Below, piece by piece: positions 1,675 to 28,397 of a stretch of DNA of 36,209 nt. Made by a program: the position numbers and the translations under genes. The stretch spans positions 1-36,209 of the forward strand of contig JALTDM010000023.1 of the NCBI GenBank assembly GCA_027074135.1. The letters are read 5' to 3'. The first letter of the stretch is position 1; the number at the start of each line of letters is the position of its first letter. The stretch is from Bacteroidales bacterium. GTDB taxonomy: Bacteria; Bacteroidota; Bacteroidia; Bacteroidales; JALTDM01. Below the pieces are notes generated by a model, which worked only from the letters and a program-made list of their open reading frames with translations, did not search any database and had not been told where the DNA came from.

Positions 1675-3471
1675 TTACTTTCCTTTTCCCATCAAGAATT
1701 TTTCAATACCTCTTACAGCCCTGTATCCATCTGCTATAGCACTAATAGCATCTGCTGTTCTGTTTACGGCATCGCCACCTGCAAATACTTTTTCAAGAGT
1801 AGTTTGTTGTATCTCGTTAACAATAAATCTTCCTCTTTCTATCTTGATTGCATCTTTAAATTTACTTTCATCTATAAAAGAATAATCTCCTTGTTGACCT
1901 ATAGCTGCAAACACAGAGCTACATTCAATTATAGTATTACTACCTTCAATTGGTTGAGGTCTTGGCCTTCCTCCCTTAGGATCCGGAACCATTTCAGCTT
2001 TCAAATACTCAACTGCTTTTACCTTACCATTTTCTCCGTGTATCTTAATCGGTATAGCTTGCGGTATAATTTCTACTCCTTCAGCTTCGGCTCCTTCTAT
2101 TTCTTCCCAGTCAGCAGGCATATCTTCAACTCTTCTACGGTATAGCATAACTACTTCAGCACCTAATCTACGTGATACACGAGCCGCATCAATTGCTACA
2201 TTACCACCTCCAATTACAACGACTTTATAACCAACATTTATTATTTCTCCACTATTTATTCTTTCAAGAAAATATACAGCTTGTGAAGAACCTTCCAAAT
2301 CTTCTCCTTCTATACCAAGAGTCCAAGGCTTACCAAAACCGACACCAACAAATACAGCATCAAACTTTTCATAAATTTCTTCAAAACTTATATCCTTACC
2401 AACCTTAGTATTAAAGTGAAATTTAACTCCTACTTTTTTCATATAATCCACCTGCTTCATCAAGCTTTCTAGAGGCAACCTGTATTTAGGAATACCATAC
2501 ATCGTCATACCACCAGGTTTATCGTGAGCTTCGTATATTGTCACATCAAATCCTCTCAATGCCAAATAATATCCTGCTGTAAGACCGGAAGGACCAGCAC
2601 CAACTATACCTACTTTATATCCGTTAGGTGGTAAAATTTCCGGATTAACAATTTCCTTAATCATATCAGCATTTATGGCTCTTTCTGTTGCATATCTCTT
2701 AAGCCATCTTATAGCAACCGGTTCACCTCTCTTAGCAATAGCACATACTTCTTCACAACGACGTGTACATACTTTACCGCACATTTCTGGAAGCGGATTA
2801 TTATCATAAATAATTCTTATGGCATCTTCATCATTACCTTGTGCTATGGCATTAATATATTCGGGTATATGCATGTGATCCGGACATGCTTCTGTACATA
2901 AGCCGCAACTGATACACCTCTGTGCTTCTTTTCTTGCCTCATCTTCGTTGTACCCCAATACTACTTCTGCAAAAGATTTAACCCTTTCACTACCATCAAG
3001 TTCACGCATAGGAACTCGCTGATATTCATTCAAAGATGTTTCCGGTGATGAAGTAAATGAAATTAGATTGATGCCATCGGGATTATCTACCCCTGGTGTC
3101 CATAAAAATTCATCGGGATCTTCGGAAACAAAAATATAATCCTTTGTTAAAGAGAGACTTCCGGTAGGACAAACTTCTACACACAAAGCACACCAACAAC
3201 ATCTACCGTTATCTATCCTAGGTCTCAATCCCGAATCACCTTTTTTAGGTTCTATTCCCTCAACAGGAACCATATCTATAGCGGCATTCTGACAAATTGT
3301 AGAACAATTGCCACACCCAATACAGTAATCTAAATTATTATAATGCAAACCTCTATACCTTGGACTCGTTTCAGGAACTTCCAAAGGGAATTCAATGGTA
3401 TGTGGTTTTTTTGCAAATTGCTTAAGTGATGTTAACGGCTTTAATGTTCCTCTAAGATTGAAAAAACTCAT
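1675..3471 (-). CDS. mbxN: MbxN/NuoI-like 2x[4Fe-4S] subunit fused to a GltD/SudA/NfnL-like FAD-dependent NAD(P)H oxidoreductase
   Basis: N-terminal T.EFP...RYRG.H with CIGCGNCSTIC and CCWCALCVEVCP motifs, then a DPD/GltD Fe-S domain (RCISCGLCTEACP, CGKVCTRRCEEVC), GAGPSG (FAD), YGIPKYRLP, GGGNVA (nucleotide binding), YRR and FAGGD. Confidence 0.88.
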   Translation of the reverse strand: MSFFNLRGTLKPLTSLKQFAKKPHTIEFPLEVPETSPRYRGLHYNNLDYCIGCGNCSTICQNAAIDMVPVEGIEPKKGDSGLRPRIDNGRCCWCALCVEVCPTGSLSLTKDYIFVSEDPDEFLWTPGVDNPDGINLISFTSSPETSLNEYQRVPMRELDGSERVKSFAEVVLGYNEDEARKEAQRCISCGLCTEACPDHMHIPEYINAIAQGNDEDAIRIIYDNNPLPEMCGKVCTRRCEEVCAIAKRGEPVAIRWLKRYATERAINADMIKEIVNPEILPPNGYKVGIVGAGPSGLTAGYYLALRGFDVTIYEAHDKPGGMTMYGIPKYRLPLESLMKQVDYMKKVGVKFHFNTKVGKDISFEEIYEKFDAVFVGVGFGKPWTLGIEGEDLEGSSQAVYFLERINSGEIINVGYKVVVIGGGNVAIDAARVSRRLGAEVVMLYRRRVEDMPADWEEIEGAEAEGVEIIPQAIPIKIHGENGKVKAVEYLKAEMVPDPKGGRPRPQPIEGSNTIIECSSVFAAIGQQGDYSFIDESKFKDAIKIERGRFIVNEIQQTTLEKVFAGGDAVNRTADAISAIADGYRAVRGIEKFLMGKGK

Positions 3472-3487
3472 AACTCAATTTTTTTAA

Positions 3488-4606
3488 TTATCTTTCTATT
3501 TCAGGCGGACAAGTGCCCAAACTATTCATTATAAATGATACATCAGCAACATTTTCTCCTATCAGGATATTTTCCAATAAGGTTATTGCATGTACATAAG
3601 CAGCACCTCTCATGTGAGTTCTTCTAGGTTTATTACTACCGTCACTTGCCACAAAGAAACCTATTTCTCCACGGGTTGCTTCTACTCTTGAATATGCATC
3701 TCCTTTTGGTAATGTCCATTTATGTGGATTTGGAATCTTATTATAAAAATCACCTGACGGAATATTATCCAAAACATAACGGATAATTTTTATAGATTGG
3801 CGAATTTCAAATCTTCTCACAAGTGCTCTTGCCCAAACATCCCCACCTTCGTAAGGATGTACTTCAAACACTCCCTTTTCATATAATTCTCCGTAAATTT
3901 CATACGGATCATCTATTCTTATATCACTTTTAATTCCACAACCTCTCAAAGGCGGACCTACCACTCCCCATTCAATTGCTTTATTTTTATCAATAATACC
4001 AACTCCTTTTGCTCTCTTTTGAAAAATTGAATTTTCGAAAAGCAATGTATCATAATCGTCAAGCCTCTTTTCTAAATAATCCATAACCTTCATAGCCTTA
4101 TCCTTAAAACCTTTGGGAAGGTCTCTTCTTACTCCACCCGGCCAAATAAACATATGATATACACGACCACCGGTCAAATCTTCGAACAAATCAAGTATAT
4201 AGTTTCTGTCACCGACACTCCATTGACCCATAGTATATAAACCTGCAGAACCTGATTGACCTCCATACCATAAAAGGTAAGAAGCTATTCTTGCCATTTC
4301 CAAAACTAAAACTCTGATATATTTTGCTCTTTCGGGTACTTCACGTCCTTCTAACAATTCTACTGCAAGAGCATACGCTTCTTCTACTGGATCCGGTTCC
4401 GGCACACAAAACCTACATAAAATAGTAAATGCTTGTAACCAATTTCGTCTTTCTTGTAGCTTTTCAAAACCTCTGTGTAAGTAACCGACTTCTGTTCTGG
4501 CTCCAACTATCGTATCCCCTTTAACTTTAAGCCTGACCATCATATTCCCGGTTATACCCGGGTGTTGTGGTCCTAAATATAATGTTGTAACTTTTTCTCT
4601 TGCCAT
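3488..4606 (-). CDS. mbxL: MbxL/MbsL (NuoD / hydrogenase large-subunit homolog lacking a NiFe site)
   Basis: GPQHP, GYLHRGFEKL, RFCVPEPD and C-terminal CPPEIER. Lacks both the RxCxxC and DPCxxC NiFe motifs. Confidence 0.88.
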   Translation of the reverse strand: MAREKVTTLYLGPQHPGITGNMMVRLKVKGDTIVGARTEVGYLHRGFEKLQERRNWLQAFTILCRFCVPEPDPVEEAYALAVELLEGREVPERAKYIRVLVLEMARIASYLLWYGGQSGSAGLYTMGQWSVGDRNYILDLFEDLTGGRVYHMFIWPGGVRRDLPKGFKDKAMKVMDYLEKRLDDYDTLLFENSIFQKRAKGVGIIDKNKAIEWGVVGPPLRGCGIKSDIRIDDPYEIYGELYEKGVFEVHPYEGGDVWARALVRRFEIRQSIKIIRYVLDNIPSGDFYNKIPNPHKWTLPKGDAYSRVEATRGEIGFFVASDGSNKPRRTHMRGAAYVHAITLLENILIGENVADVSFIMNSLGTCPPEIER

Positions 4607-4616
4607 CTTTCAAAAA

Positions 4617-5189
4617 TTATCGTGAATATTTTTTTGCGAAATCAGGTATTTCTTCTCCTGTACGTTCAGCTATAGTCTGTCTTACATCTCGGGCATCTTC
4701 TCGACCCGGCCGTGCAAAGAAACGTTTTCTAGCATAAGCTTCTGTGTCAAAATCCCTTCTCATAGGAGGCATATCATCCCAATCCTCCAATATAAATTCT
4801 TTCGGTGCCACCAAACCTTCAAATTGAATACCGAACATCTCTCTCAATTCTCGTTCATATGTATTTGCTTGCCTCCAAATCATATCAACATTATCCATTA
4901 CAGGATTATTTCTATCTAAAAATGTTTTGACAAATACTTTTATTTTATCAACAGGTGACCAAACAATAAATATTACTTCGAATTTCCCTTCCTCTAGCCA
5001 GTCAACACATGTAATATGTACCAAATGCTTATATCCCATTTCATCTTTCAAATAAAATAATATAGCAGGTATCTTATTTTTTTCAATTCTGAGATCAACC
5101 CTATTGTAAGGAAAATCATTTTTTGTTTCTGATATTTCAGGGAAAACTTTCTGTAATTTTTCCAATATTTGAGCTTTCTTTTCTTCCAT
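4617..5189 (-). CDS. mbxK: MbxK (NuoC-like, complex I 30 kDa family) subunit
   Basis: ITCVDW, W..A..YERELREMFGIQFEG and PPMRRDF motifs; operon position. Confidence 0.88.
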   Translation of the reverse strand: MEEKKAQILEKLQKVFPEISETKNDFPYNRVDLRIEKNKIPAILFYLKDEMGYKHLVHITCVDWLEEGKFEVIFIVWSPVDKIKVFVKTFLDRNNPVMDNVDMIWRQANTYERELREMFGIQFEGLVAPKEFILEDWDDMPPMRRDFDTEAYARKRFFARPGREDARDVRQTIAERTGEEIPDFAKKYSR

Positions 5190-5199
5190 AACTAAATTT

Positions 5200-5751
5200 T
5201 TACCAATTGTATTCTTGTATATGAGGTGTTGTTGGACCTAAAACTTTCTTTTGATTTGCTCTATACCATTCAAGATTTTCTTTGTAATGCTTAGCACCTT
5301 CAGCACGCCCTTCCATTATTTTCTTTTGCAACTTAATAAAACCTTCTATTACAGCTTCAGGCCTTGGCATACACCCATTAATATAAATATCCACCGGCAA
5401 ATACCGATCTAGCACTTTAATAGTATTATATGAATCCCAATACATTCCTCCATTTATAGTACATGAACCAAAACCGATAACATATTTTGGATCTTGCATT
5501 TGCTCATAAACTCGAATTACTCTTTTTACTGTTTTCGTTGTCAAGTAACCTGTAATAAGTAATACATCCGCTTGTCTTGGTGTTGCTGCTCCCCTAATAC
5601 CAAAACGTTCAGCATCATAACGTGACGTCATTGTCGGTGGTATTTCAATGGCACCACATCCGGTACCATACGCCAAAACAAACAAAGAGTGTTTGCGCGC
5701 AAAATTTTGTATTATATCAACAATCTTTTGACTATTTTTATCGTTTATCAT
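5200..5751 (-). CDS. mbxJ: MbxJ (NuoB-like) [4Fe-4S] small subunit
   Basis: GTGCGAIE.PP.MTSRYDAERFG, PRQADVLLITG, PKYVIGFGSC..NGG and VDIYINGCMPRPEA. Confidence 0.9.
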   Translation of the reverse strand: MINDKNSQKIVDIIQNFARKHSLFVLAYGTGCGAIEIPPTMTSRYDAERFGIRGAATPRQADVLLITGYLTTKTVKRVIRVYEQMQDPKYVIGFGSCTINGGMYWDSYNTIKVLDRYLPVDIYINGCMPRPEAVIEGFIKLQKKIMEGRAEGAKHYKENLEWYRANQKKVLGPTTPHIQEYNW

Positions 5752-5763
5752 CGCAATATTATT

Positions 5764-6669
5764 TTAAATTACAACAGAATATACAAGTGCTGCCAACCCT
5801 AATACTGTTGGCCATCCCCAAAAATATCTAATAGCTTGCTCCGTCCTATATCTTGGACTTACTAAACCATAAAGCATTGGAATCAGATATAATGTAAATG
5901 TTTCTATCAGCAATACTACAATGTTTGATGCTCCTCCCATGAATAAATCAACATACAACGTTAATTTAGTAAATGCAAAAATAGAACCTGAAGACATCAT
6001 CAAACCTAAATATTTGCCTCCAAATTCCGATATTGGACCTGATGCCAATTCGGCTGGTGCTCCAACAATATCAAAAGGTGAATATCTAAACATACCCAAC
6101 ATTGCTAATATTGCTGCCAAAAATGCTAAAGGGTTTTGAAACATCAACCATCCATGTTGTTGTTGGATAGCCATCAAATCACTAATAGAAGTTGTATGAT
6201 ATTGTATCATCATTGCAACCAAAGCCATAACCCAAGGTATCTCAAAACCAACCATTTGACTCAAACCACGTGTTATACCTATTGCAGCATTCGGATTGCC
6301 TGTTTGACCTGCACCTAACGCCATTCCCAAAGAACCTAACACCATAAAGTACAGAATGAAAATTAAATCTCCATGATATGAAAGATTAGGAAACCAAGAC
6401 TGTCCCCTTAAAATAGGAATAAACAATAAAGTTCCCATTGAAGAAATCATTAGAAAAGCAGGAGCCAAATGTTGCATCACACCATGATGTACAGATGTTT
6501 TCTTTGAGACCAACTTTAAGGCATCAATATAATTCTGCCAAACTGGAGGACCTACTCTATTTTGCACTCTCGCCGTAATCTTTCTATTAATCCCCATGTA
6601 GAGCATTCCAACAATAAAAGCTACAATTATTGTAGCAATTGCTCCTAATGTTTTTATTAAAAAATCCAT
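5764..6669 (-). CDS. mbxM: MbxM (NuoH/ND1-like) membrane subunit
   Basis: RKITARVQNRVGPP..Q...D..KL..K and PFDIVGAPAELASGPISEFGG; multiple TMs. Confidence 0.9.
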   Translation of the reverse strand: MDFLIKTLGAIATIIVAFIVGMLYMGINRKITARVQNRVGPPVWQNYIDALKLVSKKTSVHHGVMQHLAPAFLMISSMGTLLFIPILRGQSWFPNLSYHGDLIFILYFMVLGSLGMALGAGQTGNPNAAIGITRGLSQMVGFEIPWVMALVAMMIQYHTTSISDLMAIQQQHGWLMFQNPLAFLAAILAMLGMFRYSPFDIVGAPAELASGPISEFGGKYLGLMMSSGSIFAFTKLTLYVDLFMGGASNIVVLLIETFTLYLIPMLYGLVSPRYRTEQAIRYFWGWPTVLGLAALVYSVVI

Positions 6670-6687
6670 AACCCACCTACTTTTATT

Positions 6688-8538
6688 TTATACTGTGAAA
6701 ATGTTATTAGCAATCAACAATAAAATTACCAGAAATGTTATAACATAAATTGCATATGTTTGAGCATTCCCATTATATATCCTCCTAGTCCAATCAAAAA
6801 ACGCCTCCATTCCATCAGCAAATTCATTATAATATTTACTTATTTTATATCTGAGTAAAGGAGATATTGCTCTCTCAAACGGTTTATAAAAATCAAGTTT
6901 AAAACTGTAATTTTCATCTTCCTTAGGCATTTCACCGGATAAACTTATATCCTTTGTACTAACATATCTTCCATTTTTCCACCTATAGAAAAGAACTATT
7001 GCAATTGTCACAAAAACTGTTATTGTAGTATACATAATTAAGTCTGTGCTAACTTTATTACCCCAAGCATTAAACAAGGTTGTCATTTCCCACCATTTAC
7101 CTTGGCTTACCGGATAACCCATTACGACCAATGCATTATCAATGTATTTCAGTAGATAACCCGGAAAAGCGCCAAAGAAACCTAAAAGTAATGCAATTAT
7201 CACCATTGGTATAACCATCAAAGCCGGTGCTTCTTTTACATTTTCAAATTCAGGTTCTTCCTGTCCAAGGAAAATGCTATATAATATTTTAAAAACATAT
7301 AAGAAACCTGCTGTACTCGCAAAAAAGATTACTATTACCAAAATATAATTACCATTAGAAATCAAAGACTCATAAAGCATCCATTTCCCAACATAACCTA
7401 CTAGAGGAGGAATACCTGCCAAAGCTATAGCAGACATTAAAGCAGAAAAGAAAGTCCACGGCATTTTTCTAATTAATCCTGTCAATACAGTTAAGTCAGT
7501 AGTGCCTGCTTGTCTTTCTACGGCACCAACAACCATAAAGAAATTTGCTTTAAACATACCGTGTACTATAGAAAGCATTAAAGCTGCAATCATTGATATT
7601 TCAGTTCCTATTGCCACACCTGTAATTATATATCCTAATTGTGCCACTGAAGAATATGCTAACAATTTTTTGGCATCGTCTTGGAAGATTGCATAAATAG
7701 TAGCCATCCCTGCAGTAATTGCACCTAACCATGCAATTGTTTCACGAACCCAAAAATTTTGAGGTAAATGACTTACCATAGTAACAAACACTATAACAAG
7801 ACCATAAACCCCCATCTTAGACAAAGCCCCCGAAAACATTGCCGTATATGACATAGGAGCATTACTATAAGCATCCGGTGCCCATACATGTAATGGCATC
7901 ATAGCAGCTTTTACGGCAAAACCTGTAATTAATAATAACGCTATCGTTATTTGATAACTTGCAGGCATTGTTGTAAATCCCGCAGATAAATCAGCTATTG
8001 AAAAAGAATGTAATTGAGAATAAACCATTACAATTGCCATCAACATAGAATATGCACCAAGAGCACTAAACAATATATATTTAATACCTATTTTATTAGC
8101 TTTATTCCCATTATATACAACAATAAGATATGATGACCACGTCATTATTTCCCAAAAGATAAAGAAAGATACTAAATCTTTGGACATAACAATCCCCATC
8201 ATACCAAAAATGCTAAGCAAATAATTCATGTAAAAGAATCCCAAATTATCTTTACCTTTCATATATGGTAAAGAGTAGAACCCAGCTAACACAGCTAATC
8301 CTAGTATAATAATACTAAACAATAATCCTAAATGATTCATTCCCAAAGAAAGGGTAATACCTCCCAAGTTAAAAACAGCAACAGTGTCAGGCGTCATCTT
8401 AATAAAGAATAATGCTGCTGCAACGACTATTGTCGAAATGAACATCAGATCACGTACTACTCCGGATATCTTGTTGGCAAAGTATGTTAATATTGCCCCA
8501 CCAAGTAATATTCCCAATGTTATATGTATTATATTCAT
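6688..8538 (-). CDS. MbxH' antiporter-like (MrpD/NuoL/M family) ion-translocating subunit
   Basis: FFIFWEIM, KAAMMPLHVWAPDAY..AP, KKLLAYSSVAQLGY and GIPPL.G..GKW; long C-terminal extension. Confidence 0.88.
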   Translation of the reverse strand: MNIIHITLGILLGGAILTYFANKISGVVRDLMFISTIVVAAALFFIKMTPDTVAVFNLGGITLSLGMNHLGLLFSIIILGLAVLAGFYSLPYMKGKDNLGFFYMNYLLSIFGMMGIVMSKDLVSFFIFWEIMTWSSYLIVVYNGNKANKIGIKYILFSALGAYSMLMAIVMVYSQLHSFSIADLSAGFTTMPASYQITIALLLITGFAVKAAMMPLHVWAPDAYSNAPMSYTAMFSGALSKMGVYGLVIVFVTMVSHLPQNFWVRETIAWLGAITAGMATIYAIFQDDAKKLLAYSSVAQLGYIITGVAIGTEISMIAALMLSIVHGMFKANFFMVVGAVERQAGTTDLTVLTGLIRKMPWTFFSALMSAIALAGIPPLVGYVGKWMLYESLISNGNYILVIVIFFASTAGFLYVFKILYSIFLGQEEPEFENVKEAPALMVIPMVIIALLLGFFGAFPGYLLKYIDNALVVMGYPVSQGKWWEMTTLFNAWGNKVSTDLIMYTTITVFVTIAIVLFYRWKNGRYVSTKDISLSGEMPKEDENYSFKLDFYKPFERAISPLLRYKISKYYNEFADGMEAFFDWTRRIYNGNAQTYAIYVITFLVILLLIANNIFTV

Positions 8539-8545
8539 TGCTATT

Positions 8546-10048
8546 TTAATTTATAGTTTGACTTAATGATAACACATCGTTAATATAAGAACCTTTATCC
8601 AACAATGTTGCAGATGCTTTATGCAACACTCCGGTTATAACATCCGGATAAAATCCGACAATCAATATTATTGCACCTAGTACCAACATAGAGAACATTG
8701 CTTGTGGAGTAGGTTTCGTTATTCCCAAATCTGTATCTCTTTTTACAAAATAAATTCTGTTTACTACTCTTAAATAATATATCACTTCTATTAAACTTAT
8801 TGAAAGAATCAAAGCAATAATCAAAAGCATACCGGAATCTGCTGCTGCAGTAAGCACAGCCAATTTACTCCAGAAACCTGCAAATGGTGGGAACCCCACA
8901 ATGGCAAAAGCTCCAAGTGCAAATAAAAATGATGTTACCGGCATCATTTTGCCTACACCATTGAGTTCTGATATATATTTATTTTTAGACTTATAAACTA
9001 AATAGCTACCTGACATGAAAAGTAAAGACTTAATGATAGCATGATTAAACATGAGGAAAAGCGCTGCATAAACACCTTCTTCCTTTCCAATCCCGAATGC
9101 TACCAACACAAGTCCCATTTGTCCAATACTGGAATATGCCAACATCCTTTTAAGCTTTGTTTGACTAAATGCTGCAAATTCAGCAAAAAACATAGTAATT
9201 AAGCCCATCACAATCAGATATTCATAAGTTCCTCCAACTTCAAACAATGTATAAATAAGCCTAATAACAGTGTACAATCCTGCTTTAACCACAATTCCGG
9301 CAAAAGCGGCTCCAACAGGTGCCGGTGCTTGAGAATAAGCATCTGGTGCCCACCCATTCAACGGGAACATTTCGGCTTCAATACCAAATGCTACTAAAAA
9401 TAATACCAGTGCTGTTATTTTATAAACAGGTTTTAATTCATGAGCTTTCACAGCTATATCTGCCATATTTAATGTGCCCAATTGAGAATAAATAATCATT
9501 ATTGCTAAAAGCAAAAATGTTGAAGACAAAGAACCAATAAACAAATACTTAAATGATGCTTCTGCACCGTCTCGATGACGATAATAAGCAGTAAGTCCAT
9601 AAGCAGTGATACCTAAAATTTCGATAAACACAAACAAGTTGAATATATCACCGGTTAAAACTACACCTACAGATGCTGTAATCATCATCATCAGAAGTAA
9701 ATAATACTTCAACGTAGGTTCATAGTCATCATAATCTTCAAAAGTTTGATACCTGTATGAATAAATCCATACAAGCAATCCCATAAACAACATTAATGTT
9801 GCCAAGAAACCACTAAAAGGAGAAAATACTAAATCAATTCCCCAAGGTGGTGTCCATCCGGCAATTACTTCAACTACTCTTCCGTGTTCAATGGTGTAGT
9901 TCAATAAATCTACAGATAAATATAACAAATACAGTATAACTACACCAGGAGTTATTCTCACTAACTCTTTCCATGCCTTTCCCAACAGCGGAATCAAAAA
10001 AGCCGCAAACAATGGGATGGCTATCAATTGTACAGGTGATCCTACCAT
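8546..10048 (-). CDS. mbxH: MbxH antiporter-like (MrpD/MnhD) subunit
   Basis: GWTPPWGI, TGDIFNLFVFIEI, EASFKY, FPLNGWAPDAY, KRMLAYSSIGQMG and GFPPFAGFWSK. Confidence 0.9.
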   Translation of the reverse strand: MVGSPVQLIAIPLFAAFLIPLLGKAWKELVRITPGVVILYLLYLSVDLLNYTIEHGRVVEVIAGWTPPWGIDLVFSPFSGFLATLMLFMGLLVWIYSYRYQTFEDYDDYEPTLKYYLLLMMMITASVGVVLTGDIFNLFVFIEILGITAYGLTAYYRHRDGAEASFKYLFIGSLSSTFLLLAIMIIYSQLGTLNMADIAVKAHELKPVYKITALVLFLVAFGIEAEMFPLNGWAPDAYSQAPAPVGAAFAGIVVKAGLYTVIRLIYTLFEVGGTYEYLIVMGLITMFFAEFAAFSQTKLKRMLAYSSIGQMGLVLVAFGIGKEEGVYAALFLMFNHAIIKSLLFMSGSYLVYKSKNKYISELNGVGKMMPVTSFLFALGAFAIVGFPPFAGFWSKLAVLTAAADSGMLLIIALILSISLIEVIYYLRVVNRIYFVKRDTDLGITKPTPQAMFSMLVLGAIILIVGFYPDVITGVLHKASATLLDKGSYINDVLSLSQTIN

Positions 10049-10419
10049 TTTAAATTCTTTATTTCGTCAATATTAACTGTTTTATGATGTCTGTATAGTC
10101 TGATAACTAATGCCAATGCCACTGCTGTTACTGCAAATCCTATAACAATAGCTGTAAGAACCAATGCTTGTGGCACAGGATCAACCATAGCAGGATTTTT
10201 GTCTATCACAGCAGGTGAAAAAATAGGAGCTGTTCCTCCTTTCAAATACCCAATTGAAACTAATAATAAATTTATACCAGAATCAACAATGGACAATCCG
10301 ATTAGAATTTTAATTAAAGACCTTTTTACCAATGCGGCATAAAGCCCAATTAATATCAAAGCTATTGCCGTACCGTAAAAGGTCACCGTCAACAGATCCA
10401 GATTACTTCCTAAACTCAT
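10042..10419 (-). CDS. mbxG: MbxG (MrpC/MnhC-like) subunit
   Basis: LIKILIGL, GGTAPI and VDPVPQALVLTAIVIG. Confidence 0.92.
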   Translation of the reverse strand: MSLGSNLDLLTVTFYGTAIALILIGLYAALVKRSLIKILIGLSIVDSGINLLLVSIGYLKGGTAPIFSPAVIDKNPAMVDPVPQALVLTAIVIGFAVTAVALALVIRLYRHHKTVNIDEIKNLKW

Positions 10420-10422
10420 AAC

Positions 10423-11127
10423 TTATGATTTTTTATATTCTTTTTCGTTTAACATAGTGTAAAGCACTCCTGTTAATTCAGCTCCAACCTTAAAACCTAC
10501 TGCAATGTAAATTATAGGTATAATTCCTCCACTAAACAGGTCATTTATTGTTCCGATAGGTAAAAAATTTTCCAAAAAAGTTTTCCCTAAAATTAAACCA
10601 GTCAAACCTAAAGAAGCAAACGTAAGTCCGGCTAACGATTCCACCCATGTTAAAACTCCATGACTTACTTTATAATCATGGTATGCCAACAACATTAATA
10701 AAAATCCCGTAGCGATAATTGTTCCACCTTGAAAACCTCCCCCTGGAGATAAATGTCCATGTATAAAAACATAAGCTCCAAGAAGTAGTATTGGAGCAAA
10801 TAATAAATGTGCTCCAGACCTTACAATAGTACTTGCATTAAAAAGTACAGCTTCCCCATGTGCTTTCCTTCTATACAAAACACTACCCAAAGCAGTAGCT
10901 GCCAGAAATAAAACGGTAACTTCACCTAGAGTATCAAATCCTCTGAAGTTTACAACTATTGAAGTTACACTATTTGAGACATGAAGGTCATTTTTTGATT
11001 TATCCAAATAAAAGTCCCTTACATTTTCCCCTTGGAATCTATTTTCACCAAATTTTATTTGAGAAAAAACGTCAACCAAATAATAAGCAACCACAGCCAA
11101 TAATATAAGAACTATAACTTTTTTCAT
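10423..11127 (-). CDS. mbxE: MbxE (MrpB/MnhB-like, MbhE+F fused) subunit
   Basis: N.VTSIVVNFRGFDTLGEVTVLF and HGHLSPGGGFQGG. Confidence 0.9.
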   Translation of the reverse strand: MKKVIVLILLAVVAYYLVDVFSQIKFGENRFQGENVRDFYLDKSKNDLHVSNSVTSIVVNFRGFDTLGEVTVLFLAATALGSVLYRRKAHGEAVLFNASTIVRSGAHLLFAPILLLGAYVFIHGHLSPGGGFQGGTIIATGFLLMLLAYHDYKVSHGVLTWVESLAGLTFASLGLTGLILGKTFLENFLPIGTINDLFSGGIIPIIYIAVGFKVGAELTGVLYTMLNEKEYKKS

Positions 11128-11411
11128 TTTTTAATGATTTTATTTCCTATTTTAACATGTCTTTTATCTTCGTGCCTTTCGGTATTACGAATAGTAATAA
11201 CAAAAACAATTGTAGTCAAAGCAACACCTATAGCCGCTTCTGTAAGCGCTACATCAGGAGCTTGTAACACATAAAAGAAAATAGAAAGAATAAGGCTTAT
11301 TACAGATGTTGCAATTACGGCATAGAGCAAATCTTTTTGTATAACTGCATATATTGCAGCACCTATTTGCAATATTGCCATTATAATGATACTGATAGTT
11401 AAAATATCCAT
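11124..11411 (-). CDS. mbxD: MbxD (DUF4040 / MrpA C-terminal-like) subunit
   Basis: LQAPDVALTEAAIG motif, three TMs, ATGA overlap with the next gene. Confidence 0.88.
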   Translation of the reverse strand: MDILTISIIIMAILQIGAAIYAVIQKDLLYAVIATSVISLILSIFFYVLQAPDVALTEAAIGVALTTIVFVITIRNTERHEDKRHVKIGNKIIKK

Positions 11412-11422
11412 AATTCGACCTC

Positions 11423-11776
11423 CTAATTATTTTCGTTACGTTCTACAACTTCTTTATATGCATCCAAATCCTCTTCTTTACCTTTAAAGAAAGGTTTAAT
11501 TTTAGATTTATAAGCACTTCTTGCCAAAGCATGTGAACTAATCGGATTTGATAAAGCTATAAAAATTACCAAAATCAAAGATTTCCAAAACCAATCTGGT
11601 TGAATTAGCCCTACACCTATAATTAATGACATGCCTCCAAGAGTGGTAGCTTTAGTTCCGGCTTGAAGTCTATTATATACATCTGGCATACGATATATAC
11701 CTAATGCACCTAAAAATAAGAAAATGCTACCTATTATAATTAATATTAAACCGAGAATTTCCAATATTTGATTCAT
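11423..11776 (-). CDS. mbxC: MbxC (MrpG/MnhG-like) subunit
   Basis: G..RMPDVYNRLQAGTKATTLG and NPISSHALARSAY. Confidence 0.92.
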   Translation of the reverse strand: MNQILEILGLILIIIGSIFLFLGALGIYRMPDVYNRLQAGTKATTLGGMSLIIGVGLIQPDWFWKSLILVIFIALSNPISSHALARSAYKSKIKPFFKGKEEDLDAYKEVVERNENN

Positions 11777-12042
11777 AACGCGTCCTCCAAATATCTAGCA
11801 ATTACTAATACACCTACAAAACCTAAAACACCGTAAACTAATGCAACATCAAGGTAAATAAATCTTTGGTACAAATATCCCAATAAGACCAAAGCTCCAA
11901 CCCCAATGGTAGTAAGAGTATCCACGGCTACCGTCCTGTCTGCAGCAGTCGGACCTTTTATAAATCTGATGAATCCAAAAATCATCGCTAATATTATAAA
12001 CCCGAATGCAACTAAAATCGTAATGTCCTTAAATGCTTCCAT
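11773..12042 (-). CDS. mbxB: MbxB (MrpF/MnhF-like) subunit
   Basis: R..KGPTAADR.VAVD and YLDVALVY..LGFVG....ARYLE. Confidence 0.92.
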   Translation of the reverse strand: MEAFKDITILVAFGFIILAMIFGFIRFIKGPTAADRTVAVDTLTTIGVGALVLLGYLYQRFIYLDVALVYGVLGFVGVLVIARYLEDAL

Positions 12043-12557
12043 TATTCAAAAATTTTTAACAATATTTTTTCGAAAGTTTCAGCTATATCCTTAAAAGCTT
12101 GTTCCGGATCTGTATTTTTAACATCAATCCAGTGTATATAAATATAATCATCAACAATATCTACAGACAATGTACCGGGAGTAAGGGTTATACTATTTGC
12201 CAAAACCATTTTTGCATAATTAGTTTTCAGCTTTGTTCTAATTTTAACAATACCCGGATTTATCGGCAAAGAAGGCGAAATAACTCTGCGTGCCACATCA
12301 AAGTTTGCCTTAATCATTTCAATAATGAAAACAATTATATACTTAATTACGTTATATAGCTTTCCCGGAGCTAAAAACGAAAAAGTACAACAATCAAAAA
12401 ACCTTAACGTAAATAAGGCGACTAACATAGTTGTCGCAGCACCTACCAGCACTTCTTGTATTTCTAATGTTGATGTAAATGCCAACCAAACAAGGAAAAG
12501 CAACGCCCAACTTAAAAAGAAGTGCATCACCTTAGCCGAAAATGTACTCTCTTTCAT
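12042..12557 (-). CDS. mbxA: MbxA (MrpE/MnhE-like) subunit
   Basis: KANFDVARRV..P.LPINPGIV, LANSITLTPGTL and YIHWIDV. ATG at 12557 is preferred over TTG at 12578. Confidence 0.9.
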   Translation of the reverse strand: MKESTFSAKVMHFFLSWALLFLVWLAFTSTLEIQEVLVGAATTMLVALFTLRFFDCCTFSFLAPGKLYNVIKYIIVFIIEMIKANFDVARRVISPSLPINPGIVKIRTKLKTNYAKMVLANSITLTPGTLSVDIVDDYIYIHWIDVKNTDPEQAFKDIAETFEKILLKIFE

Positions 12558-12801
12558 AAAATTTTGTGTTATTAGCAATTATTTTTTCGGCATAAATATA
12601 ATTCTTTACAGAAATCAAAAAAGTGTTTTATAACAAATTTTATTTTATATAAACTTTAAGATGCCTAAAATCCGCAAAATACCGTAAAACAGAACATGTT
12701 CAAACATTAAACCCTACGCAAATAATACTTAAAAACATTTAACGTAAAAACCCTAATAGTTAAAAACCTTAAAACAAAAATTATTTACTATAAAAAAAAT
12801 G

Positions 12802-12809
12802 TACTTTTG
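12802..12809 (+). promoter_or_regulatory. Bacteroidota -7 promoter element (TACTTTTG)
   Basis: TAnnTTTG consensus about 30 nt upstream of the M16 protease ATG, followed by an A-rich leader without a Shine-Dalgarno sequence. Confidence 0.6.
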
Positions 12810-12837
12810 TGATTGGAATAAAAAAAAATGAAAAAAA

Positions 12838-16176: not shown

Positions 16177-16368
16177 TCAAGATATTTTATTTGTAGTTAT
16201 GTGGTTTATTTTCCCGTTCTTTAAATCTTTTAGTTGGCATGTAGAATTACCACACATACTGCATGGATTAACATCTTTTCTAAACAACCCAACAACCTTC
16301 CACAGCTGCCTGAAAGCTAAACTGAAAGCGACAAAAACTATTATCCACGCAACTATATCATAAATCAT
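16177..16368 (-). CDS. FeoB-associated Cys-rich small membrane protein (63 aa)
   Basis: ATG at 16368 overlaps the feoB TGA (ATGA). One N-terminal TM followed by CSMCGNSTC. Confidence 0.75.
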   Translation of the reverse strand: MIYDIVAWIIVFVAFSLAFRQLWKVVGLFRKDVNPCSMCGNSTCQLKDLKNGKINHITTNKIS

Positions 16369-18743
16369 AACAAAAGTCCTCCAATTTGATAAACTAAAAA
16401 TCCGAATATCCACGCCAAACCAGTGGTATAAACCATCATAAACGTAGGCCAAGTCCATGTGCCTGTTTCTTTGTAAACCGTGGCAATGGTAGCGACACAT
16501 GGAAAATACAATAAAACAAATACTAAAAATGCAAGTGCAGTTAATTTGTTAAAAACAGGGGCTCCATCGCTTTTCCTTGCTGTTTTCAGTGCTTGTTTTA
16601 AATCTTTTTGATCGTCACCACTCCCAACATATAACACGCCCATCGTACTGACTATCACTTCTTTCCCGGACACTCCCGCAATTACGGCAACAGTTTCTCT
16701 CCAATCAAATCCTAATGGAGCAAATGCAGGCTGAACTGCACGTCCTATTTGACCTATGTATGAATTATATAAAGTTGTCTTGTGAGTTTCTTTTATATCT
16801 TTCTCCGGCCGGGGAAAATAACCTAAAAACCATATAATTATTGAGGCAACTAAAATTATACCCCCCATTTTATTCAAATATTGCAGAGCTTTATGCCACA
16901 TATGCCTTAATGTAGATTTCATCGTCGGCATTCTGTACGGTGGTAATTCCATTACAAACGGAACCTCTTTTTTGTTGAAAAATATTTTTTTGAAAATAAT
17001 AGCTATTAAAATAGCAACGGAAATACCCAATAAATACAAAAAGAAAATAACTGATCCTGCACGGTGTGGGAAAAAAGTTCCTGCAATTAAAATGTAAACA
17101 GGCAAGCGTGCACTGCAAGACATAAAAGGATTTATCAAAATGGTGAGCAATCTGTCGTTTTTGCTTTCTATCGTTCGAGTAGCCATTATTGCCGGCACAT
17201 TACAACCAAATCCCATAATAAGCGGTATAAATGACTTGCCGTGCAAACCTATTTTATGCATCAACTTATCCATAATAAAAGCCGCCCGTGCCATATATCC
17301 TGTATCTTCCATGAATGATATAAAGAAAAATAGTATCAAAATGTTAGGCAAGAACACTATTACACTTCCAACACCACCTACAATACCATCGACAAGCAAA
17401 TCTCTTAACATTCCTGTAGGCAAAATCATATTTAAAACATCTTTCAACCAAACAATAATATAATCAATCCAATCCATAGGATATTTTCCCAACCAAAAAG
17501 TTCCTTCGAACATCACCAAAAGAAAAAATAAAAATATAGGGAACCCTAAAAATTTATGTGTAAGTATATTATCAAGTTTATTAGTACCTATGTGAGAATT
17601 TTTATTCCCTTCTAAATAAGTTTCTTTAAGCGCTCCTCTTACAAAAGCATAACGCGAATTTACAATCAAGTCGTCCACTTCTTTTTCACTACCTAAATGC
17701 TCTTTAGTCTTTTGGCGGTAATTATATGTTTTTTTCCTTATTTGTTTATAATTATTAAAGGACTTTGATTTTTGCATAATCAACGGGTCTTGCTCCAATA
17801 ATTTTATTGCCAAAAAGCGTGGTGATACAGCATTAGATAACGAACTTCCCGTTTTTTCAGCAGTTAACTCTTCTGCTAATTCAGAAACAAAACGTTCTAT
17901 AGGTTTTTGATACCTTATAATGACATTTCTTTGATTATCGTTTTCGTAAGTATCTATTATTGACTGTAATACTTCACCGATACCAATTTTTTTACTACCT
18001 ATTGTTGGAACAAGTTTAACTCCCAACATTCCCCCAAGTAACTTATAATCTAGATGTGAACCTGTCTTTTGCAACTCATCATACATATTAAGTGCAACCA
18101 CCAACTTGAGGTTTGTTTCCAAAAGCTGCGTTGTCAAATACAAGTTCCGTTCAATATTTCCTGCATCTGCCACATTTAAAACAACATCAGGTATGTCGGT
18201 TATCAAATGGTTCAATACAAATTTTTCTTCAGGAGAATATGCAGTTAGCGAATAAGTACCAGGTAAGTCGATAAAATTGATTCTATATCCTTTAAAAGTC
18301 GTACTACCTTTTTTTGCATCAACTGTAACACCGCTGTAATTCCCCACATGTTCAACTGAACCGGTAAAATAATTAAACAACGTGGTTTTACCACAATTAG
18401 GATTACCTACAAGTGCAACATTTATAACCTTTTGCTTATGTGTCTTAGAGCTGAAATTGGAATTATTTTTTAAATTATATGTCTGAGAAATCTCTTCCGC
18501 ACTTATTTTAAAATCATCAAAATCTTTACTCACTTCAATCAACTCCGCTTCACTACGTCTAAGACTCACTTCAAAATTCATTATTTTGTAGTCAACTGGG
18601 TCTTGTAAAGGTGCTTGCCTAACAACCTCAATAATCCGTCCTTCCACAAAGCCAAGCTCTGCCATCCTTTTCTTAAATTCACGGTGTCCTTTGACTTTTA
18701 CAATTACACCTCTTTCTTTATTTTTCAGTTCTACCAGTTTCAT
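16365..18743 (-). CDS. feoB: Ferrous iron transporter FeoB with fused N-terminal FeoA domain
   Basis: FeoA domain (APLQDP..Y......SLRRSEA), G1 GNPNCGKT, VGNYSGVTV, DLPGTYSL, GFGCNVPA, PFMSCSARLP and LLYFPCVAT. Confidence 0.95.
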   Translation of the reverse strand: MKLVELKNKERGVIVKVKGHREFKKRMAELGFVEGRIIEVVRQAPLQDPVDYKIMNFEVSLRRSEAELIEVSKDFDDFKISAEEISQTYNLKNNSNFSSKTHKQKVINVALVGNPNCGKTTLFNYFTGSVEHVGNYSGVTVDAKKGSTTFKGYRINFIDLPGTYSLTAYSPEEKFVLNHLITDIPDVVLNVADAGNIERNLYLTTQLLETNLKLVVALNMYDELQKTGSHLDYKLLGGMLGVKLVPTIGSKKIGIGEVLQSIIDTYENDNQRNVIIRYQKPIERFVSELAEELTAEKTGSSLSNAVSPRFLAIKLLEQDPLIMQKSKSFNNYKQIRKKTYNYRQKTKEHLGSEKEVDDLIVNSRYAFVRGALKETYLEGNKNSHIGTNKLDNILTHKFLGFPIFLFFLLVMFEGTFWLGKYPMDWIDYIIVWLKDVLNMILPTGMLRDLLVDGIVGGVGSVIVFLPNILILFFFISFMEDTGYMARAAFIMDKLMHKIGLHGKSFIPLIMGFGCNVPAIMATRTIESKNDRLLTILINPFMSCSARLPVYILIAGTFFPHRAGSVIFFLYLLGISVAILIAIIFKKIFFNKKEVPFVMELPPYRMPTMKSTLRHMWHKALQYLNKMGGIILVASIIIWFLGYFPRPEKDIKETHKTTLYNSYIGQIGRAVQPAFAPLGFDWRETVAVIAGVSGKEVIVSTMGVLYVGSGDDQKDLKQALKTARKSDGAPVFNKLTALAFLVFVLLYFPCVATIATVYKETGTWTWPTFMMVYTTGLAWIFGFLVYQIGGLLL

Positions 18744-28368: not shown

Positions 28369-28376
28369 TATCTTTG
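28369..28376 (+). promoter_or_regulatory. Bacteroidota -7 promoter element (TATCTTTG)
   Basis: TAnnTTTG consensus; supports the ATG at 28398 rather than the TTG at 28374. Confidence 0.6.
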
Positions 28377-28397
28377 CGAAATAATAACAAAGATTTT

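Follow-up and report, generated by a model that had tools for sequence, protein, structure and literature searches.

An MBS/Mbx-type operon of a Bacteroidales genome with a fused NfnB/GltD-type flavoprotein: a candidate NADPH-driven sulfane reductase

Introduction

What kind of respiratory complex is encoded by a 13-gene operon of antiporter-like and complex I-like genes in a Bacteroidales genome, where does it draw its electrons from and to what does it pass them? An earlier note on this 36,209-nucleotide stretch of DNA (the window) recognized the subunit set and order of the Pyrococcus furiosus membrane-bound sulfane reductase, MBS or Mbx, and took the last gene to be NuoI. We find that the last gene encodes considerably more than NuoI. 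Our preferred reading, to which we assign a probability of about 50% on sequence grounds, is a bacterial complex of MBS/Mbx type that would carry electrons from NADPH through FAD and Fe-S clusters to sulfane sulfur and couple this reaction to ion translocation.

Results

The ORF list of the window contains 13 tightly packed minus-strand ORFs running from 12578 to 1675, which overlap by 1-7 nt or are separated by gaps of 3-18 nt. The first ORF can start at a TTG at 12578, but an ATG at 12557 is likelier. Upstream lies an AT-rich intergenic region (12579..12837), common to the operon and a divergent M16 peptidase gene, that from its sequence is presumed to hold the promoter; a sigma-70 scan returned 48 sites against 52 expected and carries no information on this region. 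On the minus strand, a terminator-like hairpin (1654-1624; 14 pairs, a loop of 3, then GTTTTTT) begins 21 nt past the operon stop codon. Such sites show no excess across the region (7 found, 5.7 expected), so the case for a terminator is one of position and stem length. The layout of 13 coupled genes with a closing terminator thus stands as previously described, and a scan of the other 18 window ORFs found no Nuo subunits or hydrogenase-maturation genes, again in agreement with the earlier reading. A transposase fragment is located 1 kb downstream of the operon.

All genes described below are on the minus strand. The series opens with subunits similar to MbsA/MrpE (12042..12578; 178 aa from the TTG, 171 aa from the ATG; Pfam MNHE, 3.9e-43), MbsB/MrpF (11773..12042; 89 aa; MrpF_PhaF, 6.9e-19) and MbsC/MrpG (11423..11776; 117 aa; PhaG_MnhG_YufB, 8.9e-26), the last of which also passes the cut-off of NCBIfam NF009314 (117.8 bits; cut-off 102). 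These are followed by MbsD, an MbhD/DUF4040 protein equivalent to the C-terminal part of MrpA (11124..11411; 95 aa; MbhD, 9.6e-21), MbsE (10423..11127; 234 aa; MnhB, 7e-23, and MbhE, 3.7e-10) and an MbsG/MrpC/NuoK-like subunit (10042..10419; 125 aa; Oxidored_q2, 2e-28). Two antiporter-like proteins with Proton_antipo_M domains come next. MbsH (8546..10048; 500 aa; 2.5e-65) has NF006241 as its top NCBIfam match, at 444 bits and below the cut-off of 645. The second, MbsH' (6688..8538; 616 aa), has a C-terminal extension and scores 306 bits against MbsH' of the P. furiosus structure (6u8y_X) and 180 against MbhH; its residues 6-607 align to 7-614 of 6u8y_X, and the P. furiosus residues E128, K217, K248 and K399 are all kept. 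The remaining genes encode an MbsM/NuoH-like membrane anchor (5764..6669; 301 aa; NADHdh, 1.2e-54; 168 bits to 6u8y_M, 82 to MbhM), the MbsJ/NuoB-like carrier of the proximal [4Fe-4S] cluster (5200..5751; 183 aa; Oxidored_q6; 230 bits to 6u8y_J, 142 to NdhK), an MbsK/NuoC-like subunit (4617..5189; 190 aa; Complex1_30kDa, 3.8e-27; 54.9 bits to 6u8y_K, marginally above NDUFS3 at 50), an MbsL/NuoD-like subunit without NiFe ligand pairs (3488..4606; 372 aa; Complex1_49kDa) and the 13th gene (1675..3471).

Six PDB searches, run with L, J, H', M, K and the last gene (counted here by its N domain), each gave a chain of P. furiosus MBS (6U8Y) as the top match. Together with the Pfam order, this bears out the assignment of the subunit set and order to MBS/Mbx: the same 13 subunit types occur in the same order, and the long extension on H' is shared. 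The order proposed earlier, MrpE to NuoI, holds for genes 1-12 by Pfam and fails at the 13th, a 598-aa protein. Complex I has a homologous L/J/K/M/N core and antiporter-like pumps, but the window operon lacks NuoA, NuoJ, NuoE, NuoF and NuoG and has a full Mrp set instead, and its nucleotide module is of NfnB rather than NuoEFG type. Nevertheless, source annotations give the complex I-like genes Nuo names, with L as 'NADH-quinone oxidoreductase subunit D', and NCBIfam names the Mrp-like genes antiporter subunits, just the split into antiporter and NADH dehydrogenase that had been foreseen.

The motifs RFCVPEPD and CPPEIER, noticed earlier in the 49-kDa homolog, are located at residues 65-72 and at the C-terminus of L. 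This subunit scores 349 bits against 6u8y_L, 229 against Thermus Nqo4 and 150 against MbhL; its identity to P. furiosus MbsL is ~47-48%, estimated by eye from the alignment. As in P. furiosus MbsL, quinone ligands are missing: Thr19 and Val68 occupy the positions of the quinone-binding His38 and Tyr87 of Nqo4. The Val is present in all 87 loci examined and Thr19 in 12 of 12 alignment rows. Also as in P. furiosus, the NiFe cysteine pairs are absent and two of the four cysteines are kept, Cys67 and Cys366 (P. furiosus C85 and C385). These vestigial residues are uninformative on substrate because they are kept in only 2/4 loci of a paralogous clade 2 and are dispensable in P. furiosus, according to a portion of PMC7684303. 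An L phylogeny had been suggested as a check on the MBS assignment. In our tree, built without P. furiosus MbsL, which could not be placed, the window L falls in its own clade, outside both the NiFe-motif clade and the mass of NuoD-like sequences. By its scores and in the tree, L is MbsL-like rather than NuoD-like or hydrogenase-like. 'Ehr versus MbsL', which the earlier note had posed as a choice, offers no clean alternative since Mbx itself is described as a hydrogenase-related (Ehr-type) complex in part of PMC6349859.

The membrane-bound hydrogenase MBH (group 4 [NiFe]; 6CFW) shares the Mrp-like arm and the M/J/K/L/N peripheral module. It differs in having the RxCGxC and DPCxxC ligand pairs that the window L lacks and one antiporter-like subunit where the window has two, and no NiFe hydrogenase large subunit (PF00374) was found in any of five related genomes. 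The J subunit has three cysteines in all (32, 97 and 127), and the proximal cluster has three Cys ligands as in P. furiosus MBS; unlike that enzyme, J has Gly at the C25 position, as do 83/83 covered loci. Exactly three cysteines would fit the non-cysteinyl Fe proposed as the MBS catalytic site in a section of PMC7684303.

The reading of the last gene as NuoI did not survive. Its NuoI/MbsN-like part spans only residues ~9-125 (domain 1-125, 3097..3471), a 2x[4Fe-4S] ferredoxin with Fer4 families at 44-109 that scores 84 bits against 6u8y_N and 51 against NdhI. Residues ~150-596 (module 150-598 plus stop, 1675..3024) form an NfnB/GltD-type NAD(P)H flavoprotein composed of Fer4_20 (1.5e-29) and Pyr_redox_2 (1.5e-25). 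Two [4Fe-4S] sites in Fer4_20, an FAD site (GAGPSG) and an NADPH-type GGGNVA...YRRR motif are recognizable in this module. Against the PDB, it reaches 324 bits with Thermotoga maritima NfnB (4ylf_B) and 319 with P. furiosus NfnI-L (5jca_L), to which residues 151-596 align full length with the same Fer4_20, FAD and NADPH sites including YRR; large chains with an NfnB-like domain (9n5u_A, 9bov_A, 8oh5_C) reach 303-320 bits, GltD 203-209 and DPD 136. In contrast to NfnAB, an NADH-dependent ferredoxin:NADP+ oxidoreductase, the module is fused to a complex I-type ferredoxin subunit, and the operon has no NfnA/S partner.

The sites of the fused protein are conserved among its relatives: all 16 cluster cysteines, the FAD GxGxxG and GxGxxA...YRRR. 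The eight N-domain cluster cysteines are kept wherever covered (74-75 loci of clade 1, to which the window belongs, and 4 of clade 2), and the Glu that follows the seventh Fer4_20 Cys never varies (72/72 and 4/4 loci). YRR is present in 69/69 covered clade-1 loci and, in an alignment with the window protein, in the NADPH-binding T. maritima NfnB; in clade 2 an NADH-like motif, TSLE, replaces YRRR. The fused protein also matches NCBIfam NF010590 (PRK13984, 'putative oxidoreductase') along its whole length (positions 11-609 of 611), but its 639 bits fall below the curated cut-off of 946, and clade 2 scores closer, at 881. One control genome, which we infer to be T. maritima, exceeds this cut-off. 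An AlphaFold model of the fusion (pTM 0.59) has pLDDT < 50 across 154-173, 190-200 and 221-265 of Fer4_20, and a connection of the cluster chain is not visible in it.

The operon is real and widespread, and belongs to a family already noted. At least 589 species-level genomes contain a relative, and the majority of the best 80 loci come from MAGs of Bacteroidales, other Bacteroidota, Ignavibacteria and Calditrichota. The complete 13-gene set is found in 43 of these 80 and in 36 of the 38 with sufficient flank, and the full-length fusion in 59 of the 60 with >= 1850 nt downstream. Passages of PMC4758237 describe 'mbx-like' operons of Thermotoga and proteobacteria in which a gltD-related flavoprotein takes the position of NuoI, and MBX of T. 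maritima is described in part of PMC9431562. The 13-subunit operon and a fused N-flavoprotein as last gene are shared with these bacterial operons. The operon is not unusual.

Discussion

From these observations we infer which way electrons flow, what accepts them and that ions are pumped. In the reaction we favor, the FAD of the flavoprotein would oxidize NADPH. Electrons would then pass through four [4Fe-4S] clusters, two in the flavoprotein and two in the domain of the presumed electron-entry subunit N, and reach the proximal [4Fe-4S] cluster of MbsJ with its three Cys ligands. In the chamber formed by L, J and M, this cluster would reduce a sulfane-sulfur substrate (polysulfide, S0-derived or organic polysulfane). 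With J, K and L as peripheral subunits and M as anchor, sulfane reduction may drive H+ (and Na+/H+) translocation through the Mrp-like set A, B, C, D, E and G and the antiporter-like pumps H and H'. Standard potentials are -320 mV for NADPH and about -260 mV for polysulfide/sulfide. With so small a gap, much less energy would be available than in the archaeal reaction, which runs on ferredoxin, and the two-pump and Mrp arm therefore looks oversized. For P. furiosus MBS, whose 208-aa MbsN (6U8Y) accepts ferredoxin, a part of PMC7684303 names ferredoxin and not NADPH as the donor; the fusion makes a ferredoxin-driven reaction of this type unlikely as the sole mode in the window complex, whose host is a bacterium and not, as in P. 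furiosus, a hyperthermophilic archaeon, and which is known from its genes. On S0, mbxA of T. maritima rises 4.36-fold (PMC9431562).

The quinone-linked enzymes of the lineage count against a sulfur acceptor, and one can envision that menaquinone or another hydrophobic oxidant enters the L/J/M chamber, making the complex an NADPH-specific replacement for complex I. We consider this unlikely. The MbsL gene is the only Complex1_49kDa-type locus in the window's family, which includes two 99%-complete same-genus genomes, and no NuoD-type complex I was found in the genomes of this family, while a NuoD-type match at 31-38% identity turns up in most of the order's other families. An NqrB-like locus is present in the window's own genome and 3/4 related genomes, RnfD-like loci are present in the lineage, and cytochrome bd occurs in 4/5 genomes and UbiA-type prenyltransferases in 5/5, with two UbiA-family members in the lineage. 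With menaquinone as acceptor, NADPH oxidation would yield enough energy to run several pumps. In width, the opening of the MBS chamber matches that of complex I, as a part of PMC7684303 describes. However, Thr and Val take the places of His38 and Tyr87, the ligands of the quinone head group, just as in the P. furiosus enzyme, which is free of quinone; the J cluster with its three cysteines carries the signature of MBS and not the tandem-Cys signature of N2; and MenA (TIGR00751) scored above cut-off in none of five genomes.

Doubtful, too, is the original 'Mbx' proposal of a ferredoxin:NADP+ oxidoreductase, or its reverse, in which reduced ferredoxin would feed the Fe-S chain, NADP+ would be reduced at the fused flavin and ions translocated as in Rnf. 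The built-in NADP(H) site makes it structurally possible, and 5/5 genomes encode PFOR and further 2-oxoacid:ferredoxin oxidoreductases. This reading is given for mbx-like operons with a gltD-type subunit in passages of PMC4758237, and for Mesotoga Mbx (bioRxiv 10.1101/322537). Against it, a route via N would bypass the strictly conserved J/L/M chamber and three-loop coupling site, and P. furiosus Mbx has been re-assigned to sulfane reduction (parts of PMC7684303 and PMC9431562). An Rnf-type locus already exists in the lineage, and one same-genus genome has a separate NfnA+NfnB-like pair; in the reading we favor, this pair could supply the NADPH from ferredoxin and NADH.

We give little credence to a membrane-bound flavin-based bifurcating or confurcating enzyme, in which NADPH electrons would be split between the chamber acceptor and ferredoxin, or ferredoxin and NADPH combined. 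The flavoprotein module does score higher against Nfn-type proteins and the three large chains, which we take to be from bifurcating enzymes, than against GltD and DPD, relatives of the same fold that to our knowledge are non-bifurcating; the invariant Glu also speaks for it. Nfn enzymes are electron-bifurcating, as stated in part of PMC9431562. Yet the operon has no NfnA/NfnS-like partner with a [2Fe-2S] cluster and second flavin, no second exit path is evident, and the AlphaFold model is uninformative here.

A last alternative is that the operon is foreign to this Bacteroidales genome. The source MAG is 82% complete in 372 contigs, the operon flanks are non-syntenic with same-genus genomes and the transposase fragment is nearby, but an assembly or binning artefact is scarcely credible given L identities of 95, 93 and 91% in three genomes of the genus and of 78 and 77% in two others of the family, 92, 80, 78, 61 and 58% for the flanking M16 peptidase in the same five, and even GC along the contig (0.30-0.39). 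Placement in Bacteroidota rests on these same-genus orthologs and on the titles of relatives: an 'uncultured Bacteroidales bacterium' MAG has a 93% identical L, and Bacteroidales or Bacteroidetes stands in the titles of most of the 80 best loci. The sequencing run that best contains the window DNA is labelled a hydrothermal vent metagenome, perhaps just the source sample.

The operon and its contig

Judged from its sequence, the locus is a genuine, intact and well-conserved member of a known family. The minus strand carries thirteen ORFs between 12578 and 1675; adjacent ones share 1-7 nt or leave gaps of 3-18 nt, and are as tightly coupled as the earlier note had described. The first ORF is listed from a TTG at 12578; the ATG at 12557, the start used in that note, is likelier. 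Pfam assigns MNHE, MrpF_PhaF, PhaG_MnhG, MbhD, MbhE+MnhB and Oxidored_q2 to genes 1-6, and Proton_antipo_M (500 aa), Proton_antipo_M (616 aa), NADHdh, Oxidored_q6, Complex1_30kDa and Complex1_49kDa to genes 7-12. The note had matched this order to that of MBS, the membrane-bound reductase of sulfane sulfur (A,B,C,D,E,G,H,H',M,J,K,L,N), and the order is indeed identical here, in one cluster, with an extra module fused to N. The proposed terminator is also present: a hairpin of 14 pairs at 1654-1624, 21 nt past the last stop codon, with a T-run after it. Hairpin-plus-T-run sites are not in general excess over the scanned region (7 versus 5.7 expected), so the argument for termination here is one of position and a long stem. 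A sigma-70 promoter scan was uninformative (48 sites versus 52 expected), and Bacteroidota promoters lie outside the coverage of the tool.

The source MAG comprises 2.13 Mb in 372 contigs (82% complete, 3% contaminated), and the window corresponds to the whole of contig C23 (36,209 bp). The public run in which this DNA is best represented carries the label hydrothermal vent metagenome and is possibly the source sample itself; none of the nine public runs listed is an RNA run. Whether the contig might be chimeric had been raised as a concern. Six flanking window proteins had no match in seven related loci at E <= 1e-10, and synteny could therefore not be used to support contig integrity; we turned to orthologue identities. 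The M16 peptidase flanking the operon has orthologues that are 92, 80 and 78% identical in the same genus and 61 and 58% identical in the same family. L declines similarly (95, 93 and 91%, then 78 and 77%), and GC content is even along the contig. A chimera is unlikely.

Relationship to MBS

In all six PDB searches (L, J, H', M, K and the N domain), the closest solved relative is a chain of Pyrococcus furiosus MBS (6U8Y). L scores 349 bits against 6U8Y, followed by Thermus Nqo4 (229), MbhL (150) and HycE (122); J scores 230 (next NdhK, 142), H' 306 over its full length (next MbhH, 180), M 168 (next MbhM, 82) and the N domain 84 against 6u8y_N (next NdhI, 51). For K the margin is marginal, at 54.9 bits versus 50 for NDUFS3.

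The MBS signature residues described for L and J in PMC7684303 are present in both subunits. Like P. furiosus MbsL, L keeps two of the four NiFe cysteines, Cys67 and Cys366 corresponding to C85 and C385; these vestigial residues sit in RFCVPEPD and CPPEIER, which replace the RxCGxCxxxH and DPCxxCxxH/R ligand motifs of group 4 [NiFe] hydrogenases. J has exactly three cysteines, at 32, 97 and 127, which pair with C28, C93 and C123 of P. furiosus. Gly occupies the fourth position in the window and in 83 of 83 related loci; the P. furiosus residue there, C25, is present but too distant to ligate the proximal cluster, according to PMC7684303, which proposes the three-Cys proximal cluster as the MBS catalytic site. 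With Gly at this position, the J sequence itself would enforce a three-Cys proximal cluster. The proximal [4Fe-4S] cluster of J is predicted to have three Cys ligands, leaving a non-cysteinyl Fe, and the residues of J agree with this.

As in P. furiosus MBS, there are two antiporter-like pumps, H and H', the latter with a C-terminal lateral helix and TM15-16. Residues 6-607 of H' align with 7-614 of 6u8y_X, and E128, K217, K248 and K399 are retained. At the position of P. furiosus H336 stands a Leu, with a conserved His four residues further on. Unlike respiratory complex I, the operon has no NuoA, NuoJ or quinone His/Tyr, and J reads GTGCG rather than a tandem CC. The note had reported no NuoA/J/K/E/F/G and no hydrogenase-maturation genes; among the other 18 ORFs scanned in the window there is no Nuo gene and no Hyp gene, and a Pfam search of the window found no member of the NuoA or NuoJ families.

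We placed L in a quick maximum-likelihood tree (LG+G4, SH-aLRT support only) of 152 rows: the window, the L sequences of four relatives, another 12 taken from named loci, and 135 representatives out of the 150 best at 50% identity, 14 of the 15 omitted being shorter than 340 aa and one having an aligned span below 300. The window L falls inside a 14-row clade, clade 1 (SH-aLRT 99), which joins a four-row paralogous clade 2 (99) and then the representatives P0121, P0122 and P0256 (95) to give a 21-row clade. The best PDB match of the outer members P0121 and P0122 is 6u8y_L (363 and 347 bits). The six sequences with the NiFe motif RxCGxC that turned up on inspecting the first 60 representatives all lie in a separate 23-row clade (100), and a 96-row NuoD-like mass is likewise separate from the 21-row clade. 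Built without P. furiosus MbsL itself and without named Thermotoga, Fpo or Ehr references, the tree tentatively favours a grouping of L with MbsL. The note had set MbsL against NuoD, Ehr and true hydrogenases; Ehr has to be taken out of that contrast as not a true alternative, since Mbx itself is described as a hydrogenase-related complex in PMC6349859.

The last gene

The earlier note was mistaken in reading the thirteenth gene as plain NuoI, and overlooked a flavoprotein fusion: 1675-3471 encodes 598 aa, of which residues ~9-125 form a NuoI/MbsN-like 2x[4Fe-4S] domain and residues ~150-596 match Fer4_20 and Pyr_redox_2. The fused module scores 324 bits against Thermotoga maritima NfnB (4ylf_B) and 319 against P. 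furiosus NfnI-L (5jca_L), above its matches to GltD (203-209 bits) and dihydropyrimidine dehydrogenase (136 bits). It has the features of the NfnB/GltD type, namely an eight-Cys Fer4_20 region that accounts for two clusters (Cys 186, 189, 192, 196, 231, 235, 239 and 243), the FAD motif GxGxxG (GAGPSG at 291), and GxGxxA in the second Rossmann fold (GGGNVA at 421) followed by YRR (YRRR at 444). In this fold, YRR after the second Rossmann motif marks NADPH specificity, through the 2'-phosphate.

The best family model is NCBIfam NF010590 (PRK13984), the fused 'putative oxidoreductase' of bacterial MBX operons, aligned over 11-609 of its 611 positions. The window protein reaches 639 bits, under the curated cut-off of 946; by this comparison it shares the NF010590 architecture and belongs to a different subfamily. 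An AlphaFold2 model of the fusion, from a 36-row alignment (A2), has a mean pLDDT of 72.8 and a pTM of 0.59. Its Fer4_20 segments 154-173, 190-200 and 221-265 fall below pLDDT 50, and the model is therefore of no use for inter-domain wiring.

Distribution and subfamilies

The survey across Bacteroidota that the note had called for was run as a distribution scan with a pattern from the L alignment, one genome per species. It found at least 599 stretches, of which at least 589 are confirmed relatives. The best 80 of these relatives are 69-93% identical and all come from MAGs. Their record titles are mostly Bacteroidales or Bacteroidetes; others name Lentimicrobiaceae, Prolixibacteraceae, Marinilabiliaceae, Flavobacteriales and Saprospiraceae, and further titles Melioribacteraceae/Ignavibacteriales, Calditrichaceae, Chlorobiota and Neomarinimicrobiota. 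All 13 genes are colinear in 43 of these 80 loci, and all are present in 36 of the 38 with 8 kb or more upstream of L and 1.85 kb or more downstream, the exceptions being L056, without A-E, and L068, without A-B (E <= 1e-8). The full-length fusion occurs in 59 of 60 loci with enough downstream DNA. In the family of the window, an orthologue is present in five of five other genomes (77-95% identity). An MbsL-type match occurs in four of 35 genomes from other families of the order, one of which (G030) has two, and in two of 300 genomes, both of one family, in an even sample of the phylum (>=90% complete). The complex is thus patchy within the phylum and common in certain uncultured lineages.

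Two subfamilies differ in the nucleotide site. GGGNVA...YRRR is found in 69 of the 69 clade-1 loci that cover the position. The four clade-2 loci, whose fusion protein is ~42-45% identical, have an insertion and TSLE in place of YRRR, and lie nearer NF010590 (881 bits). By the usual Rossmann-fold rule, the YRRR pattern points to NADPH and the TSLE pattern to NADH.

G030 carries two complete 13-gene operons (L009 and L010, on G030:C18 and G030:C21), one of clade-1 type (L 73% identical, YRRR) and one of clade-2 type (L 47%, TSLE). Some 1.8 kb past the clade-2 operon there is an NqrB-like gene. Clade-1 operons also appear in MAG records of one isolate series titled 'Leptospira biflexa' (L086), 'Draconibacterium orientale' (L058) and 'Melioribacter roseus' (L094). 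The Leptospira label looks unreliable, since its L sits among Ignavibacteria/Calditrichota-type sequences in the tree.

Proposed mechanism and alternatives

We propose that NADPH would reduce the FAD of the fused module, with electrons passing through the two Fer4_20 clusters and then the two N-domain clusters to the three-Cys proximal cluster of J, which would reduce sulfane sulfur in the L/J/M chamber. Conserved loops would transmit the energy of this reaction to pumps H and H' and on to the Mrp-type module as well. The whole path from NADPH to sulfane sulfur, with its ion coupling, is a prediction from conserved residues and domains. Outside support for the scheme is thin: S0 induces mbxA of T. 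maritima 4.36-fold (PMC9431562).

We searched five genomes for metabolic context: the source MAG, two 99%-complete genomes of the same genus, one of the same family, and G030, from another family of the order. The genomes of the window's own family, f1 (G000, the source MAG, and G002, G003, G004 and G005; ~1.9-2.2 Mb), have a single Complex1_49kDa-type locus, the MbsL gene, and most other families of the order have a NuoD-type match at 31-38% identity. The f1 lineage thus seems, from these gene contents, to lack a canonical complex I. An RnfD-like locus occurs in all five genomes searched and an NqrB-like one in four (not found in G005). An [FeFe] hydrogenase occurs in four of the five, and none has a NiFe hydrogenase large subunit (PF00374). 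A Psr-type polysulfide reductase was considered as another sulfur route and rejected: NrfD is found in only two of the five, and was not found in the source MAG or in 99%-complete G002.

The main objection to NADPH-driven sulfane reduction is energetic. By standard potentials, NADPH to polysulfide releases far less than the ferredoxin-driven archaeal reaction. The acceptor could instead be something other than sulfur, for example menaquinone. Two UbiA-family prenyltransferases are present in each of the five genomes, and cytochrome bd in four (not found in the incomplete source MAG); no MenA match exceeds the cut-off in any of the five, and L has Thr19 and Val68 at the positions of the complex I quinone ligands, Nqo4 His38 and Tyr87. 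In the same-genus genome G003 the cytochrome bd subunit I gene is split (G003:C2:47673-49167), with a TAG inside the match, which may reflect a pseudogene or a fault in the assembly.

An older reading makes the complex a ferredoxin:NADP+ oxidoreductase, as proposed for mbx-like operons in PMC4758237 and also in bioRxiv 10.1101/322537. Genes for PFOR and other oxoacid:ferredoxin oxidoreductases are found in all five genomes. In P. furiosus MBS, N is free-standing and reduced ferredoxin is the donor, whereas here N is fused to an NADPH-type flavoprotein. Flavin-based electron bifurcation is a third alternative. In G002, a separate NfnA-like gene (291 aa, DHODB_Fe-S_bind) adjoins an NfnB-like gene (501 aa, Fer4_20+Pyr_redox_2) at locus L096 (G002:C7:11000-18000); no counterpart of the pair was found in the 82%-complete source MAG. 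For family f1 one could further picture the NADPH-type complex as the only complex-I-type coupling site and, through its Nfn-like flavin, as a membrane-bound electron-bifurcating or confurcating sulfur respiratory enzyme that links the ion gradient with ferredoxin and the pool of NADPH, with coexisting NADPH-type and NADH-type paralogues, as in G030, forming an ion-coupled transhydrogenase via a shared sulfur acceptor; we consider this combined picture very improbable.

If NADPH-driven sulfane reduction is correct, many uncultured Bacteroidota, Ignavibacteria and Calditrichota of sulfidic and hydrothermal sediments could gain energy by NAD(P)H-driven sulfur reduction, and metabolic reconstructions of these MAGs would change. 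Such a complex goes under the pipeline labels 'Na+/H+ antiporter' and 'NADH dehydrogenase'. The fusion is a natural experiment in which a nucleotide-oxidising module has been added to the MBH/MBS/complex I scaffold independently of NuoEFG, and the YRRR (NADPH-type) and TSLE (NADH-like) paralogues offer a direct handle on donor specificity.

Previous descriptions

Neither the operon type nor the fusion is new in kind, both being already recorded. For Thermotoga and proteobacteria, a last subunit of gltD type in mbx-like operons has already been published (PMC4758237), and PMC10356935 discusses bacterial MBS in Thermotogota, Caldisericota and thermophiles related to them. Our literature search, whose scope was papers open without subscription, found no description of the operon in Bacteroidota or Ignavibacteria; in one paper that mentions Mbx, Bacteroidetes and ferredoxin, MbxL is only named as a [NiFe]-hydrogenase large-subunit paralogue, with nothing on the operon. 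Work by Leng et al. (2022, Environ Microbiol, doi 10.1111/1462-2920.15931) reportedly deals with Bacteroidetes VC2.1 Bac22 / Ca. Sulfidibacteriales, a vent clade, and may bear on sulfur reduction in bacteria of this kind.

Other genes of the window

The 18 other ORFs are unrelated to the operon and include the M16 peptidase, FeoAB, phosphoglucomutase, RmlD, M20 peptidases, ProRS, an FAD-oxidase/Fe-S protein and a RecD-like helicase. A Mutator-family transposase remnant lies on the minus strand at 241-681, a 146-aa ORF that matches only model positions 35-139 of 379. This truncated IS remnant, ~1 kb downstream of the operon, may be related to the missing flank synteny with same-genus genomes. 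A single 792-aa protein (16365-18743, minus strand) combines FeoA with FeoB. At E <= 1e-5, Pfam recognises nothing in two adjacent minus-strand ORFs, 23542-24984 (480 aa) and 25016-26701 (561 aa). On the plus strand, 28374-31331 encodes a 985-aa protein in which FAD_binding_4 and FAD-oxidase_C are joined to a Fer4_17/Fer4_8 dicluster region; these domains suggest an enzyme of GlcD/D-lactate-dehydrogenase-like type that carries its own Fe-S domain.
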